A stretch of DNA of 64,000 bases, taken from IMG/VR virus record IMGVR_UViG_3300033145_000192, positions 96,001-160,000 of that record; one strand, written 5' to 3'. Below the pieces are notes generated by a model, which was given only the letters and a program-made list of their open reading frames with translations, was not told where the DNA came from and made no database searches. Source of the stretch: a virus. Shown here one piece after another: positions 30,574-61,362 of the stretch; within the stretch, counting starts at the first letter, position 1; each line of letters opens with the position of its first letter. A program made the position numbers and the translations under genes.

Positions 30574-32313
30574 TTAGAAGTTTGTGCCGTAATATGGGGC
30601 GTTTTCGGTCACCGCATCATCTGCCCTTGAGTAGTAAATCCAAATTCTAGCATCCCTGAATGGTTCACCACCAGCCTTTGCCCTGAACTGATACCCACGG
30701 TCATCAATAACTTCATTCTCATTGATGAGTCCAACCTGCCAAAATTGTAGTCCACTACCAATGTGATTTGTTAGGTCCGTAATAGCGATGTCATTTAGAT
30801 ATTCGGGAGCCCAGTTAAGAGTCTGAGCGTGGTTTGAATATCTTTTGAATTCCAATCCACTGCCTATTTCTGTGAACGAAGTCCATGGGTCAGAACCAGA
30901 AACTTCGCACCAAATACCACCCAATCTGGTCCAATCCAGTGCATTGTAAACACTTACGTTATATGTCTCAAATAGAATCTTGGTGATATTAGCATTGTCT
31001 GGCAGTTCAGTGATATCAAAAATGCAAGCAGAACGATACAGAACAGTGGCATCCCTGCCGACAAACTCGGAGGCATCAGCATCCCACCTGTTACCAATGT
31101 CGTAACTCGTAGTATGCACTCCAGTTATGACTGTTAGGTGGTCAAGTCCCTCGTCCCATGGACCGTCAACGAAGTCGTCAGTAGTATTTACTTCGAACGT
31201 ATGGTCATAGCTCTTGTGAGCAGCAGTATTTTGTAGAACCAAGCACACACCAAAGCGGTCTGTTTCATCATCATTAACTACGCTGAATATCGCATTGTCT
31301 ACTGTCGTAGCCAACTTCAGTCCTGTGCCTAGAAATGCGGCTTCTTCCTGTGAGTGCGCAGGGTGCGTGTCTGAATCATCATTGCTTTGTGGAAGACGAC
31401 AGAATTGTCCAGCATAATACTCAAGTGGCAATAGTCCATATTCAATAGCCGCACCAGCCACAAGACAGTCAATCTGACAACGATATTCTCCTTGTGGCCA
31501 TTCTACGCCTGGAAGACCAGACATACTTACTGCATCATATGCAACTCCACCAACTGCTGCGGGAACCGTAAGAGCCTTGGTTCTTTCTGTAATACTGTCG
31601 GCATGTTTTGTGATGTATTCTGTATAGATGCCAGTATGCGCTGAAACACCAGCAGCATATGTTCCACCACGAATATACATGGTCATTGTTCCGCTAGGAA
31701 CGCTATACCTTCCTTGTGAGCGTTGGCCCAGCAATTTTCCAGTTACATCAAGCTCTGATTCTGGAAGATGCTCAGTCCACTGTCTCCAGCTTATCTCCTC
31801 TGTTGCTCCATCGTGTGTAGAAAGCAACTCATTGTCATCAACTTGCTTACCGTGACGAATCAATTCAGGAGCAGGAAGCTTGAAATCAGTCCACTTTTTG
31901 AATATAGTTTTTTCTGGAATGCCACTTTTTGTAAGTCTAGCAACAGCCTTTTCTTCAGCATAGACTACACGCGACTGATTGGTATTGATTGCTCCACCAA
32001 GCCTTGCATCTGGAGCTAGGGGGCGAAATGTGATTTCTGTAGCATATCGCTCGCCAATTGGGTTTGTTCTGGGGTCGTCATCCCAAATTGTGGCCCTACA
32101 CCCTCCGTCCATTGTATGCTCCACATAGTAATGGTCGGCACCCATTATGACACCTTGGATATTTAGCGAATATACCCATCCGGCATCGTTATCTATAGAA
32201 AGACTTACAGGTGGAGTAGGGTCCACCTTGAATGGCGTGTTAGCCCACTCTGAACTATCTATTTGTTCCCACCCAGACGGGGTTGCCCTCGTCCACTGAA
32301 CCAATACCTTCAT
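30574..32313 (-). CDS. Virion protein with a C-terminal DNRLRE/CBM96-like domain
   Basis: YRSACIFDITELPDNANITK...ARIWIYY resembles the DNRLRE-type R..+.FD+..+P..A.I...P.L.+.Y pattern. Confidence 0.5.
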   Translation of the reverse strand: MKVLVQWTRATPSGWEQIDSSEWANTPFKVDPTPPVSLSIDNDAGWVYSLNIQGVIMGADHYYVEHTMDGGCRATIWDDDPRTNPIGERYATEITFRPLAPDARLGGAINTNQSRVVYAEEKAVARLTKSGIPEKTIFKKWTDFKLPAPELIRHGKQVDDNELLSTHDGATEEISWRQWTEHLPESELDVTGKLLGQRSQGRYSVPSGTMTMYIRGGTYAAGVSAHTGIYTEYITKHADSITERTKALTVPAAVGGVAYDAVSMSGLPGVEWPQGEYRCQIDCLVAGAAIEYGLLPLEYYAGQFCRLPQSNDDSDTHPAHSQEEAAFLGTGLKLATTVDNAIFSVVNDDETDRFGVCLVLQNTAAHKSYDHTFEVNTTDDFVDGPWDEGLDHLTVITGVHTTSYDIGNRWDADASEFVGRDATVLYRSACIFDITELPDNANITKILFETYNVSVYNALDWTRLGGIWCEVSGSDPWTSFTEIGSGLEFKRYSNHAQTLNWAPEYLNDIAITDLTNHIGSGLQFWQVGLINENEVIDDRGYQFRAKAGGEPFRDARIWIYYSRADDAVTENAPYYGTNF

Positions 32314-42582: not shown

Positions 42583-44370
42583 CTAGAGCCTAGAAGCCCA
42601 ACCACCAATATTGGGAACTACCTGTCTGGCCCCCATTGCGGTAAATGACCTCGCGGCATAAGAGGAAAGAAGCATTGCAGAATACCTGTCCTTCCTTTGA
42701 TATGTCTTGAGTGTCCCTTGCTGTGCAGAAGGCAAATCGGGCGTATCAAAGTGCTGAACGCCAGTCTTTGTTGAAGTTACGACAATCATGCACATCTCAT
42801 TGATTTGCTCATCAATCTCACTCCATACATCTTCATGTTCCGCCTCAGAGAGTCCATCTCTTGAACGATTCGGGAACAAGCACCTGTGGTGTTCGATATC
42901 TGCTAGAAGTCCATAGTTCGCTTCGCCAATCCATGTTGGAGTAAAGTTGACCATTTCAAGAATATGGCGACCTTCATATCTCGCGGACTCGTCATCATCA
43001 AAGCGCCAAATCGGGGCCTCTCCAGGCTGTAGCATATTTGGGTCGCACAGCAAATCCTCAATCGTTGTTCCTCCACCACCAGCATCCATCGCGATGTGGA
43101 CGATGTTGAACTTGCTTAAAACGCTCCTTACTCTCCTGGTAGCCTCTGGCCACCTTTTACCGTTCATGCTTTCGCAATATACATTTCTGTAGGAACCGTC
43201 TTTCATCATCTTCACAACGCTAATTGCGAAGTTGTCGGTCTTACGAGCAGGGTCAATTCCCATAACGTAGTTGAATCCTGGGGTTCCCTTTGTCTCAATG
43301 CAGAATCCAGGCTTTGGTGTAGAGTCGTTAATTGCGCTACGTCTTATGAAGCCATCTGAGTCTGTAGGGAAGACACATTCATATTCCATTTGGAACAGGG
43401 CCTTTGGCATTGTTAGCTTGGCCTGTGCAATTTGTTTCTCATCCATGAACGAGCGAGGAAGTGCTTGGTATGGGATTTGGATTATAGCATAGTCTCGATA
43501 ATCAAGCGCACCATCCATAAGTGGGTCATCTTCTTCGAAATCGAGGTCTTTGCCTATTACCTTGCCATCTCCAATTATCTTGTTATCTATGAGATACTTG
43601 TGAGCTAGGTAAACCTTGTAGAAGTGGTTGAACTGAAAATTGGCAGTTCCACTGTAGACAATTTGGTTGCCTTCAGTTTGCTGTCTATCCTTCTCCTCCA
43701 TCCTGCCTTCTCTAATTGCCACCTCTTCCTTGTGGGTCTGCTTTGCTGCTTCAATGGGGTTTGCAGCTACAGCGGCGAAACCTCTAACAACGACCTGGAA
43801 GATTTCTGGTGGGATGGATGCAAACTCGTCCGTAAGGATATGCGTTGCACGAATACCACGGATTTTCTCACCATTGCCTAGCGGCAAGGCTTGGATTGTT
43901 GAATAGCCACAAGTCAACTTACGAGAATCACTTGGCTTCTCTGGGGCTCTTGAACAAGCTGCCCTGAAAATTGGTGAGTAGTTGTAAAGCTGCTCAATGT
44001 ATTCAAAGACCAATTTCGACTGCCTGAACGAAGCGGCCACAATCACAATCTTCGACCCAGGCGTCAGCATGGCGCGTAAAACCGCGTAGACCGCTAGCAT
44101 AAACGTCTTGCCACCACCACGGGTCATCAGTAGGATAGGGAAGGTCTTGCCCCACAGCGTTTCTAAAATTACGCTCTGGAATGGAGCTAGCTGGAGCGGC
44201 TGGCCACGCCACATTAGTAGATGGTAGGCAGCCCACGTCAGGTTCTCCAAACAAATGGCAGCGAACTCATCATATGGGTCAGAGTATTTACCAAGATTCT
44301 CATAGAACGGATTTGTGAGTCTTGTTCCTTTTTCTATTTCATATGTGATTGGGAGTCTAATGCTTTTCAT
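42583..44370 (-). CDS. terL: Terminase large subunit
   Basis: Q motif PFQ, Walker A TRGGGKT, Walker B ILTDEF, coupling motif SGTA, RNase H-like MGIDPA and KDRYSA. Confidence 0.93.
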   Translation of the reverse strand: MKSIRLPITYEIEKGTRLTNPFYENLGKYSDPYDEFAAICLENLTWAAYHLLMWRGQPLQLAPFQSVILETLWGKTFPILLMTRGGGKTFMLAVYAVLRAMLTPGSKIVIVAASFRQSKLVFEYIEQLYNYSPIFRAACSRAPEKPSDSRKLTCGYSTIQALPLGNGEKIRGIRATHILTDEFASIPPEIFQVVVRGFAAVAANPIEAAKQTHKEEVAIREGRMEEKDRQQTEGNQIVYSGTANFQFNHFYKVYLAHKYLIDNKIIGDGKVIGKDLDFEEDDPLMDGALDYRDYAIIQIPYQALPRSFMDEKQIAQAKLTMPKALFQMEYECVFPTDSDGFIRRSAINDSTPKPGFCIETKGTPGFNYVMGIDPARKTDNFAISVVKMMKDGSYRNVYCESMNGKRWPEATRRVRSVLSKFNIVHIAMDAGGGGTTIEDLLCDPNMLQPGEAPIWRFDDDESARYEGRHILEMVNFTPTWIGEANYGLLADIEHHRCLFPNRSRDGLSEAEHEDVWSEIDEQINEMCMIVVTSTKTGVQHFDTPDLPSAQQGTLKTYQRKDRYSAMLLSSYAARSFTAMGARQVVPNIGGWASRL

Positions 44371-48714: not shown

Positions 48715-50715
48715 CTACTTAATTGGGCAGCTTCCTCTTGAGCACTTTTGCTCAGGGTCGATAACCAACTTCTTACCATCGTAAGCTTCATATGACTCGC
48801 GAGTTATTTCTGTATAGGGAGGCTGTGGTCTGCCCCCGGCTCCCACCAACACGGTGGTCCCCTTGAGCTTTGGAAGGAACTTAATTACCGTGTGGTAAAG
48901 CTCCTTCTCAGTTGTAGCAGGAGTTAGGTTGACTGTCAAGGAAATTGAATTGTCAGCCCACTCACGCTGCAACATAGCCTGAATCGCGAGGGTGTCATGC
49001 ATCGAAATGTCGTGCTGTCCCTCAACGATGTCTTCTGCATCGTAACCTAATTCAGAAACTTCGTCAACAAGCGGGTGCTTACAAACATGCTTGGCAATGA
49101 TTGTGTTTATACCCTCTTCCTTGTTAATACACTCTTCGAACTCTATCCCGTCACTCATAAGTTTTGGAATGTTAGGGTCGTCCTTTTGATAACGCACGCG
49201 TTGCTCATAGTATGGGAACAGTAGAGCCTGGCCACCCTCGGTTGCTCCAGCCAATTTTGCAATTGTGCCAGTTGGAGCTAGGGTGGTGTTCTTGATTGGA
49301 GCAGGAATTCTAAGCTCATGGGCATATTCCATGCCGGTCTTTTTCACTACTCGGTAGAACTGACGCAGCGTGCTATGCACCTCTGGGTCATTGTGGCAAT
49401 CGCTATACTTCTTGCCTTGCTTGCACAGCCAACCCTGGAAGCCAAAGAACCCGACACCAATGCGCCTGTTGCGATTAACTACGGCACGCTGCCATGGCGA
49501 ATAGATATCGCCAAAGGTAGCACGAATAAGGAAGCGAGTCATCATCATAAATGCTCGCTTTGCTCCTTCGACATTGTCGTGGAATTCTGATAGGTTGATA
49601 TGTCCTAGGTTGCAATTGCCAAATGGGAGAGCGAAAATCTCACCACATGGATTTGAACTTACGACCTCTTCGGTCTCACCGTGTTGCGCCAAAGACATAT
49701 TGCAGAAGCCTGGCTCGCCACTGACATACATCGACTCGATGCATTTCTTATAAACCAGCCTGGCGTGCTTGTCGCCCTTCTTGAATAGTCTGAAGAAGGA
49801 ATTGTCAACACCTACCGAGATGTTTGTTGTCCAATGAGAGACCCTGGCATTGTCGCCCTTACAGTGAATGAACTCAAAGATGTCCGGGTCCTTCCAATGC
49901 TTAATTGACATACGGGCACTACGACGGACATTGCCAGCAACTACGCACACTGCAATACGGTGGTCAATCTCCATGTGGTCGAGAGATGTGAGCCTCTGGC
50001 CCACTTTGCTACTCAACAATTCAGCAACGCCCTGAAGCATTCGGATAAGAGCCTCTGGCCCCGAAGCGGTGCCGCCAAATGACCTAATAGGGGAACCATA
50101 GGGTCTTACGCGGCTCATATCAAATACAAGCGGCTGTGGGTTCTTGGCAAATGCCTGCTCCAAAACCAAAATAAGAGCCTCTACCCAGCCCTCACGACTA
50201 TCCTCGACAGGAATACATCCATCCCAAGTATGGTGATAATCAGTAGATAGAGTATCCCCAATGCGCTCGTGGTCAGCATGCTTAGAGTCGCATACGATGT
50301 GAACATCGAGCTTGTTCTTAATAGGAGGATATTTCTTGATGAACCTGTCGGAGTAGTTAGCACCGACGCCACCACCCTTCATAAGCTCATCGAACATGAA
50401 GGAATAGTGGTCGGCCATATTATCACGCCAACCAGAGACGTGACAATTAAACAAGAACTGACGACCTTTGACGCCACTAACCCACAGGTGACGGCCTGCG
50501 GGTAGTGCCTTAAAATCCATGAATAGGTCAACCAAATCTTGGCGTTCGTTCCTGCGCCAGAATTTTTTGTCTACTAGAGCAAGATTACCGTCTACGACAC
50601 GTTCAACTGTCTCTGGCCATGTCTCGTTTGAGCCGTCTGGTTTCCTCCTACTATACGTTCTTTCATAAACTTGCTTCCCTATCGGACCCCACTTAATCTG
50701 CTGCATAGTAGGCAT
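48715..50715 (-). CDS. nrdJ: Class II (adenosylcobalamin-dependent) ribonucleotide reductase
   Basis: LPAGRHLW, FNC, GNVRRSA, SSNPCGEI, CNLGHINL, RRIGVG, TTLAPTGT and C-terminal CSRGSC. Single subunit, no glycyl-radical motif. Confidence 0.93.
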   Translation of the reverse strand: MPTMQQIKWGPIGKQVYERTYSRRKPDGSNETWPETVERVVDGNLALVDKKFWRRNERQDLVDLFMDFKALPAGRHLWVSGVKGRQFLFNCHVSGWRDNMADHYSFMFDELMKGGGVGANYSDRFIKKYPPIKNKLDVHIVCDSKHADHERIGDTLSTDYHHTWDGCIPVEDSREGWVEALILVLEQAFAKNPQPLVFDMSRVRPYGSPIRSFGGTASGPEALIRMLQGVAELLSSKVGQRLTSLDHMEIDHRIAVCVVAGNVRRSARMSIKHWKDPDIFEFIHCKGDNARVSHWTTNISVGVDNSFFRLFKKGDKHARLVYKKCIESMYVSGEPGFCNMSLAQHGETEEVVSSNPCGEIFALPFGNCNLGHINLSEFHDNVEGAKRAFMMMTRFLIRATFGDIYSPWQRAVVNRNRRIGVGFFGFQGWLCKQGKKYSDCHNDPEVHSTLRQFYRVVKKTGMEYAHELRIPAPIKNTTLAPTGTIAKLAGATEGGQALLFPYYEQRVRYQKDDPNIPKLMSDGIEFEECINKEEGINTIIAKHVCKHPLVDEVSELGYDAEDIVEGQHDISMHDTLAIQAMLQREWADNSISLTVNLTPATTEKELYHTVIKFLPKLKGTTVLVGAGGRPQPPYTEITRESYEAYDGKKLVIDPEQKCSRGSCPIK

Positions 50716-50722
50716 ACATCTC

Positions 50723-51401
50723 CTAACGTAAGTCTTTGATATCACCTCTTAGAAACTTCTTGAGAGATGACTTCTTATTTGTTCTATGGTCTACAACCAG
50801 GTCTTTGCGCTCGCAATAGGTTCTAACTTTGTCCCCTCTTGCCCCTCTACCGACCTGGCTTTTCCTCTTGGCGTTCTTTTTATCTTTGTTGCGTCCCCGT
50901 TGGGCACTAAATAACTTAGCCCGCATGGCGTTCAGGGCCAACGCCTTATTGCGTCCCTGCCTGCGGCCATACTGGGCTATAACTACCATTCCTGTTGGGA
51001 TGTGGGTTAGTCGAACTGCACTGTCAGTTTTATTTTTATGCTGTCCACCAGGTCCGCTACCTCTAAAGAAAGTAAATCTGAGGTCTTGTGGTCTAAGTGC
51101 CACTTCAGTCTTTTGCTGGTGTTGTAAGACAGCAACGGTAATAGTGCTTGTATGAACTCTTCCCCTGCGCTCTGTAGGCGGGACTCTTTGGTATCTGTGG
51201 ACCCCTGCCTCGTGACTGAAAACTTCATTTGCTCTCCTTCCTCCTACTTCTAGGACGACATATGATGCGGCGCGGTCGAGCAATTCAATGCTAAAGATGC
51301 TCCTTAGCGGCGACCTTCCTGAATACGTTCTCGAACTTGACAACCAAGTCCTTGGCGTCTGCACCACCAGCGGCGGCGCGAATCTCAATCGTTACGTTCA
51401 T
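50723..51401 (-). CDS. Class I peptide chain release factor, RF1-like (PxT), lacking domain 1, translated through a programmed +1 frameshift (about 225 aa)
   Basis: RBS GAGGAG then ATG 51401 gives MNVTIEIRAAAGGADAKDL...KEHL-TAG (RF IRAGxGG motif). The +1 frame continues SIELLD...EAGVHRYQRVPPTERRGRVHTS...GSGPGGQHKNKTDSAVRLTHIPTG...DKVRTY...DHR. Confidence 0.92.
51290..51305 (-). promoter_or_regulatory. prfB-type +1 ribosomal frameshift cassette AAGGAG-CAT-CTT-TAG-C
   Basis: Internal SD, 3-nt spacer, CUU shift codon, stop and C: the same geometry as E. coli prfB AGGGGG-UAU-CUU-UGA-C. Confidence 0.88.
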
Positions 51402-51409
51402 TATCTCCT

Positions 51410-51811
51410 CTATTCCTCACTCCAGAAACAATCGTCGTCAATCATCTCTTCGACTGTAGTGTCTCCTTGATTCAAACTGTCTTCAATGCGGGCATCCCAG
51501 ATGTCAAAGTCAACGAACTGGTTGCGCCTTAGATAAAACAAAAAGTTGCGCACGTTCTTCACCATTAGATAGTCAGCATCCATGCCGCCCCTATGCGCGT
51601 TCCAATAGTATTCGATGAAGTAGGCATACCTTGTGCATCTCAGTATACATACGTCGGGACCGTTAGACAACATGAAGAAAACCATGTCGCCAAATTCTTC
51701 GGCATTGTCGCGGACGGGACCAATTACAAGGCCCATCTTTTCCGCAGCGTTGCCAACTTTTGTTGCTCTTTTGAGTGTCTCAATTGAAAACTTCGGCTTG
51801 TCCACTTTCAT
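51410..51811 (-). CDS. Hypothetical protein
   Basis: ATG 51811 after a GGGAGGA RBS; first gene of the minus-strand block. Confidence 0.65.
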   Translation of the reverse strand: MKVDKPKFSIETLKRATKVGNAAEKMGLVIGPVRDNAEEFGDMVFFMLSNGPDVCILRCTRYAYFIEYYWNAHRGGMDADYLMVKNVRNFLFYLRRNQFVDFDIWDARIEDSLNQGDTTVEEMIDDDCFWSEE

Positions 51812-59034: not shown

Positions 59035-59104
59035 ATGCCACTGGCCTAAAAGTAAGGCGCTCGCCGCAAAGGCGGGAGGTATGGGTGCAAATCCCATGTG
59101 GCGT
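59035..59104 (+). ncRNA. tRNA-shaped cloverleaf with non-canonical loops (nominal anticodon CAA)
   Basis: Stems 7/4/5/5 bp, 7-nt loops, 4-nt variable loop; U8, A14, G53-C61 and U54-A58 kept; no D-loop GG, no U33, no CCA. Confidence 0.65.
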
Positions 59105-59138
59105 TTTGTTCCGTTCGTTTCTTCTACTAGGAGTGATT

Positions 59139-61192: not shown

Positions 61193-61195
61193 TGT

Positions 61196-61278
61196 CGTTG
61201 CTGGTCTAGTAGAATGACGCCCGCTATCAAAGAGCATAGCTCTTATGCGGGAGATATGGGTTCATGTCCCATGCAACG
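61196..61278 (+). ncRNA. tRNA-like cloverleaf with an elongated anticodon arm
   Basis: CGTTGC/GCAACG acceptor, D-arm GTC-TAGTAGAAT-GAC, CCCGC/GCGGG stem extended by AAGAGC/GCTCTT, ATGGG-TTCATGT-CCCAT. Confidence 0.6.
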
Positions 61279-61362
61279 CGCTACACAAGCCAGTAGGTAG
61301 AACCCCGCGTGGGGTATCACGCCGTATGGCTGTTTCTTTCACTCCAGCAAATAGGAGGGCAA

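Follow-up and report, generated by a model that had tools for sequence, protein, structure and literature searches.

A gene on the minus strand of an uncultured phage genome is laid out in two overlapping reading frames, which together encode an RF1-type release factor of 225 residues that has no domain 1. Taken as a whole, the arrangement is probably that of a factor made only by way of a +1 frameshift of the prfB type, with an output tied to termination at UAG; considered alone, the programmed +1 frameshift is very probably real, as judged from the conservation of its signals in related genes. To our knowledge, a stop-codon-gated +1 frameshift in a release-factor gene has for forty years been a textbook property of RF2 alone. 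The autoregulatory +1 programmed frameshift of prfB was reportedly described by Craigen and Caskey in 1986.

The window, i.e. the 64-kb stretch of DNA that was analysed, represents bases 96001-160000 of a complete phage genome of 177,375 bp with direct terminal repeats and a GC content of 48.4%. A megablast search with the 5-kb region against cultured and GenBank phages gave no match. The large terminase gene is located at 42583-44370 (-), and tblastn with the terminase returned only Bacillus and Microcystis phage matches, all at less than 29% identity. Directly after the release-factor gene lies a gene for a class II (B12-dependent) ribonucleotide reductase (48715-50745, -), whose start overlaps the release-factor stop, and the same order of the two genes is kept in the closely related record L001. 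Between 56500 and 58600 (~2 kb), adjoining divergent gene arms, none of the frames contains an ORF that reaches 100 aa. ARAGORN called a tRNA-Leu(CAA) at 59035-59105 and an odd tRNA-Asp(ATC) at 61195-61281, both on the plus strand; Rfam at gathering score gave no tRNA anywhere in the window, these spots included, and the two calls may be tRNA-like elements rather than working tRNAs.

The features of the gene are compiled in Table 1. The preliminary description had placed here a ribosome-binding site, an ATG at 51401, a 36-residue frame with IEIRAAAGG, and an AAGGAG separated by a 3-nt spacer from CTT TAG C; each was found at its given position. Frame 0 from this ATG includes IEIRAAAGG and ends in GCT AAG GAG CAT CTT TAG C. 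The cassette (GGAGNNNCTTTRRC) has a single occurrence in the 64-kb window, where chance would give 0.13. The joined product, P0001, was made by reading the gate as one four-base step (TAGC = Ser), and its junction peptide is KEHL-SIELLDR. No significant RNA structure was detected around the frameshift site (z -0.55), Rfam at gathering thresholds had no match within the 64-kb window, and the promoter and terminator scan gave no decisive signal.

Table 1. Positions, in window coordinates, of the features of the short RF1 gene
Feature	Position	Strand	Remark
Initiation Shine-Dalgarno GAGGAG, for ATG 51401	51405..51410	-	sequence read directly
Stop TAG of the upstream 140-aa ORF	51412-51410	-	overlapped by GAGGAG of the short RF1 gene (ORF list)
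Frame-0 segment, 36 sense codons + TAG	51291..51401	-	first strand and helix of release-factor domain 2; contains EIRAAAGGADA
GGADA stretch in the frame-0 segment	51368-51354	-	
Internal SD-like stimulator AAGGAG	51300..51305	-	ends 3 nt short of CUU, 6 nt short of the stop
Spacer CAT	51299-51297	-	between AAGGAG and CTT
Slippery P-site codon CTT (Leu)	51294..51296	-	proposed +1 re-pairing on UUU
Gate: in-frame TAG (51293-51291) + C (51290)	51290..51293	-	weak termination context
+1 codon AGC = Ser37	51292-51290	-	
Back-up frame-0 stop TGA	51285..51287	-	one codon past the gate TAG
+1-frame segment, 189 codons + TAG (50725-50723)	50723..51292	-	rest of domain 2, domain 3 (GGQ), domain 4
PPT tripeptide (PxT, RF1 type)	51173..51181	-	inside HRYQRVPPTERRGRVHTS
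GGQ catalytic motif	51041..51049	-	in GPGGQHKNKT

By sequence comparison, P0001 is made up of release-factor domains 2, 3 and 4, and domain 1 (roughly 105 residues) is absent, since matches to the RF1 model and to RF1 structures begin only at domain 2. The NCBIfam RF1 model is matched at positions 105-334 of 347 with 221.8 bits, below its equivalog cut-off of 400, and scores fall progressively from RF1 to RF2, PrfH and ArfB. The PrfH model TIGR03072 gives 92.9 bits and does not reach its cut-off of 166.65, and the match to the ArfB model (37.7 bits, cut-off 100) is confined to residues 97-132. Pfam PCRF (PF03462, 2.5e-19) is matched across the junction at positions 101-194, covering residues 2-89 of P0001, and the RF-1 domain (PF00472) at 1.6e-29. 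The best PDB matches are RF1 proteins, with the RF1 of T. maritima aligned over residues 90-315 (E 2e-48, 219 residues) and no gap at the junction, so that the earlier statements that the +1 frame holds the rest of the factor, PPT and GGQ included, and that domain 1 is missing are both borne out. This alignment is enough to establish the fold, and in it the frame-0 segment corresponds to residues 90-125 of T. maritima RF1. The frameshift site, codon 37, falls at the Trp of the conserved G-W segment of RF1. P0001 begins about five residues ahead of the EIR strand and is 39% identical to an Acinetobacter RF1 over residues 113-340.

A complete domain 2 is obtained from neither frame alone. The GG-x-acidic stretch of frame 0 is what we take, from RF1 structures, to be the tip of helix alpha-5 that contacts U1 of the stop codon, and because these residues lie in frame 0, both frames are needed for one functional fold. 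The upstream 140-aa ORF was considered as a detached domain 1 and was rejected, as it has no Pfam or PHROG match and no similarity to RF1. The decoding elements of RF1 are retained in the short factors, namely the Gln of HRxQR, PxT in most members, GRVHTS, and the acidic residue after GG. The short factor is predicted to read UAA and UAG and not UGA, because the RF1 determinants (Gln of HRxQR, PPT, GRVHTS) are invariant or nearly so.

Relatives of the short RF1 in IMG/VR, as detected by a profile scan, number 274. In 54 of the best 80 of these, the EIR motif lies one frame behind GGQ, with the frame-0 stop exactly 31 codons past the Glu. Among Myxococcota, about 60 chromosomes and MAGs have the same arrangement, Nannocystis exedens DSM 71, N. 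punicea and Minicystis rosea among them, as do further metagenome contigs. A set of 112 distinct homologous sites was assembled from IMG/VR phages, metagenomes and Myxococcota chromosomes; in this set the cassette is positioned exactly 31 codons past the Glu of the EIR motif. At 111 sites the slip codon is CTT and at one it is TTT, the dominant stimulator is GGAGG, GGGAG or GGAG with a 3-nt spacer, and the gate stop is followed by C at 88 of the 112 sites. L001, the relative with 86% identity, has an identical AAGGAG-CAT-CTT-TAG-C; at the same codon, a relative with 41% identity (L002) has GGAGG-TCA-TTT-TAG-C and the 485-kb GenBank phage LR745208.1 has GGAGG-GGT-CTT-TGA-C. The cassette is accordingly a genuine prfB-style one, with Shine-Dalgarno, 3-nt spacer, CUU, stop and C kept in the relatives. 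Where the cassette lies, relatives without an interruption have Gly-Leu-(Glu/Asp/Asn), and the cassette is therefore equivalent to one extra T past the Leu codon; comparison of the sequences indicates that this extra T is maintained by selection. Over the 36 frame-0 codons, the window gene and L001 differ by nine synonymous and six non-synonymous changes.

Some IMG/VR relatives carry in-frame stops in place of the frameshift (L008/L009, L038, L059, L071/L074, L014, L024, L041). The short-RF gene of L008 contains both TGA at codon 37 and TAG at codon 45, and the sister genes L014 (TAG) and L024 (TGA) have an in-frame stop at the codon where others shift. Such stops may be read-through gates, because L008 defies any single change of the code. 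In another group (L048, L060-L084 and L158), an in-frame TGA is located at the conserved Trp position of RF1 (GGC TGA); this clade is in keeping with phages in which TGA is read as Trp (code 4) and an RF1-type factor is encoded, a combination reported for recoded phages.

In the proposed mechanism, a ribosome would translate 36 codons up to CUU-UAG-C, where AAGGAG would pair with the anti-Shine-Dalgarno of 16S rRNA while the P site is occupied by CUU and the A site by UAG-C. With slow termination at UAG, the peptidyl-tRNA-Leu would move from CUU to UUU and the +1 frame would be translated onward. As shifting competes with termination, the output would fall as the capacity for UAG termination rises, i.e. 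a UAG-sensitive output would follow from the frameshift mechanism itself. The faster UAG is terminated in the infected cell, the less factor would be made, and shifting would respond to RF1 activity, since the rate of UAG termination depends on host RF1. A product that reads UAG, as its residues predict, would add negative feedback on its own synthesis, closing a loop on UAG, and the short factor would supplement UAG/UAA termination in a phage in which about a quarter of the genes end in TAG. Direct self-feedback on UAG in the window phage is plausible from these features, and we regard it as close to an even call.

The phage genome uses the standard code, as its long ORFs are intact under table 11, and TAG ends 23-28% of the ORFs, whichever length cut-off is applied. 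Outside the window, at genome positions 23699-49252, ARAGORN detected a tmRNA together with some 42 tRNAs in an array; suppressor anticodons are absent among these tRNAs, and one of them is a tRNA-Leu(GAG), the reader of the CUU slip codon. The translation toolkit of the phage comprises the tRNAs, the tmRNA, the short RF1 and an IF3 C-domain gene. The whole 177-kb genome was scanned for prfB-like cassettes, defined by [C/T]TT plus a stop, a Shine-Dalgarno 2-6 nt upstream, an upstream start and at least 60 open +1 codons. Only two were found, in the short RF1 gene and in the IF3 C-domain gene; both have TAG-C, and none has TGA or TAA. The IF3 gene, also outside the window (genome positions 30900-31176, +), encodes the C-terminal domain only (PF00707, 57.7 bits) and can be translated through only by a +1 shift at TTT-TAG-C, which lies six codons past the ATG and has GAGGAG upstream (cassette at genome position 30915: ATG-ACG-AGG-AGC-AGC-TTT-TAG-C). 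In its closest relative (L199, 57% identical) the shift is kept as TTT-TAA-C, which indicates that gate stops drift in this gene too. No IF3 C-domain gene was found in the records with TAG-gated release-factor relatives, and no release-factor gene in the records with IF3 C-domain relatives; these records are mostly fragments. The TAG-ended ORFs and the two TAG-C cassettes are consistent with a UAG theme in this phage. A UAG-sensing regulon, in which feedback through the short RF1 would govern the amounts of both the factor itself and the IF3 fragment, and in which short RF1s of huge phages and Myxococcota would be auxiliary terminators switched on by slow termination at the gate stop of their lineage, is a tentative and rather doubtful extension.

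Within the family the gate stop is TGA at 77 sites (69%), TAG at 31 and TAA at 4. The homologue comparison suggested in the preliminary description therefore came out in two parts: SD-NNN-CTT-stop predominates across the 112 sites, and the stop is TAG in only 31 of them. Behind all gates lies a common factor with HRWQR-V/I-PPTE...GRVHTS, its Gln invariant, and the tree groups the short factors in a clade of their own adjacent to RF1 (SH-aLRT 99). The type of gate stop changes at least 11 times on this tree, and well-supported branches alone force at least four changes; even sister genes differ (L033 TAG and L057 TGA; L029 TGA and L086 TAG). No covariation was seen between the columns of the decoding loop and the gate stop (mutual information <= 0.06), and of all protein columns only residue 37 varies together with the TGA or TAG of the gate, its codon sharing bases with that stop. 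Stop usage and GC of flanking genes gave no clear difference between TAG-gated and TGA-gated genes, in small samples. The third position of the tripeptide varies in the family, with Thr or Asn, more rarely Ser, Gly, His or Leu, and some members have SPT.

If the gate were meant for titration of the factor's own codon, TAG (or TAA) would be expected universally, as TGA is in prfB. Most relatives, as far as sequence can tell, have an RF1-type factor gated by a stop that RF1 should not read, and because this holds at 77 of the 112 sites, self-titration is not the rule of the family. The idea of a mirror image of RF2 autoregulation, put forward in the preliminary description, stays plausible for the window phage, where UAG sensing is coherent, but does not extend to the family with its mixed gates; self-feedback is weakened by the majority of TGA gates, the flips between sister genes and the lack of a covarying residue. 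Possible roles of the gate are a trans-sensor of host capacity or a fixed attenuator, a broader codon reading by the factor, or an indirect homeostasis in which RF1-type capacity relieves RF2 of UAA.

That the frameshift is real, and the gate acts as a trans-sensor or fixed attenuator through a host factor (RF1 here, RF2 in most relatives) rather than by self-feedback, is a possibility of some weight, although we lean away from it. The short factor might then be made at a set low ratio, or when the termination capacity of the host drops; behind TGA the logic would perhaps be indirect, with scarcity of RF2 leading RF1-type capacity to take UAA and so freeing RF2 for UGA. Such a gate would account for the predominance of TGA though all members retain RF1-type decoding residues, for the repeated changes of stop on the tree, and for the rarity of TAA, provided that only a weak stop can serve as the gate. 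By way of TAA, TAG can turn into TGA and back with the gate never opened, and the rare TAA sites look like intermediates; the +1 codons AGC, AAC and GAC predicted by this interchange are seen. Both cassettes of the window phage are TAG-C, however, and its factor is predicted to read UAG, in which case some self-feedback is automatic if the product is active. The data do not separate a sensor or attenuator from self-feedback. It is unlikely that the short factor is not a canonical UAG/UAA terminator and instead reads all three stops or rescues stalled ribosomes, with any gate stop reporting its activity. TGA, TAG and TAA gates on one protein type, the variable third tripeptide position with SPT in some members, the loss of domain 1 (as in PrfH) and the tmRNA of the phage are in line with such a role, but the decoding elements are kept exactly as in RF1, with PxT in most members, the PrfH and ArfB models score far lower, and an RtcB-like partner is absent. 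No RtcB-type partner was found near the phage gene, whose neighbours in the window are an unknown ORF, the class II ribonucleotide reductase and the terminase; the Myxococcota gene neighbourhoods sampled had no conserved partner and no RtcB, the matches being SnoaL, ADH and DACNV. The likeness to PrfH noted in the preliminary description accordingly holds for the missing domain 1 and not for the protein models, nor for the PDB matches (E 8e-13 for PrfH against 2e-48 for RF1).

A broken gene (pseudogene or assembly indel), two separate genes, or TAG recoded as an amino acid would each be a very improbable explanation. Gene callers would split the gene, and a TTG-started ORF of 221 aa is listed in its +1 frame. 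Against this, the one-base offset, CTT-T-stop and the Shine-Dalgarno recur at the same codon in the 112 distinct sites, and the upstream frame 0 is conserved and homologous to RF1. Because the cassette is conserved at the same codon across the family, chance, indel error, pseudogene and split gene are excluded; the preliminary description had named uninterrupted homologues without a cassette as the sign of an indel error, and what the homologues have instead is the cassette at one fixed codon. Recoding of TAG is countered by the TGA one codon later in frame 0, because of which read-through cannot give the long product, and by the intact long ORFs under table 11, the use of TAG as a common terminator and the absence of a suppressor tRNA; transcriptional slippage is countered by the absence of a homopolymer run at the site. 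Conservation effectively refutes this group of explanations, and a programmed +1 frameshift in an RF1-type gene is the reading followed below.

On that reading, a prfB-type cassette arose elsewhere, in an RF1-type gene, and has been kept in more than 100 phage and myxobacterial genes with UAG, UGA or UAA as the gate. The short RF1 gene would offer a natural UAG-responsive frameshift switch, the family would allow a direct test between self-feedback loops and sensors of host termination capacity, and the protein would be a natural minimal release factor without domain 1. The family also calls for care in annotation, as frameshift-gated short RF1 genes are split or cut short by gene callers. More broadly, it suggests that large phages monitor and adjust the translation termination of their hosts.

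No published description of a frameshift-gated short RF1 family was found, nor any described equivalent, in agreement with the preliminary description; the literature searched mostly excluded subscription journals, and absence is not proven. A review of release-factor evolution mentions neither phages nor frameshifts, and GeneTack and PRFect list CUU-stop shifts for prfB only. Among termination and rescue factors, ArfB consists of the GGQ domain and a basic tail, with no codon-reading domain, whereas the short factor has domains 2 and 4. PrfH (RF-H) is likewise an accessory release-factor homologue without domain 1 (PMC1586002), but its decoding region is divergent and it has an RtcB partner, whereas the short factor retains the decoding residues of RF1 and has no RtcB next to it. 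In the PrfH paper, authors and reviewers alike treat RF1 genes as free of frameshifting and domain 1 as dispensable for function (PMC1586002). With prfA the short factor shares the PCRF and RF-1 domains, PPT, GGQ, the Gln of HRxQR and GRVHTS; it differs in having no domain 1, in scoring below the NCBIfam equivalog cut-offs and in its requirement for a frameshift.

Recoded phages encode RF1 or RF2, for which no frameshift gate was reported (Borges et al., bioRxiv 10.1101/2021.08.26.457843). Those factors, like the short RF1, are phage-borne class-I factors thought to tune termination during infection, and the clade of the short RF1 includes code-4 relatives that have an in-frame TGA in place of the conserved Trp; the window phage differs in using the standard code without a suppressor tRNA. 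A viral termination-factor gene gated by recoding is also described for Mimivirus and Megavirus, whose eRF1-like gene needs a frameshift and a read-through (PMC3521657); it is of eukaryote type, with another mechanism and other signals, and is evolutionarily unrelated.

The closest counterpart is prfB, the RF2 gene, whose autoregulatory +1 frameshift at SD-N3-CUU-UGA-C was surveyed in PMC12421855 and PMC3711429. The survey of 2025 found no TAG among 8,164 prfB motifs, which serves there as an argument for autoregulation, and no programmed shift in prfA, in line with the preliminary description, by which RF1 genes are not generally known to frameshift (PMC12421855). The two systems share an SD-like stimulator separated from CUU by 3 nt and from the stop by 6 nt, the CUU to UUU slip, an in-frame stop followed by C, the lack of a downstream RNA structure, and the placement in a gene for a class-I release factor. 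They differ in the gate, which is UAG in the window phage and UGA in prfB, and in the position of the site, at codon 37 in domain 2 here and at about codon 26 in domain 1 of RF2. The factor itself is of the RF1 type without domain 1, and across its family the gate stop is untied to the predicted specificity.
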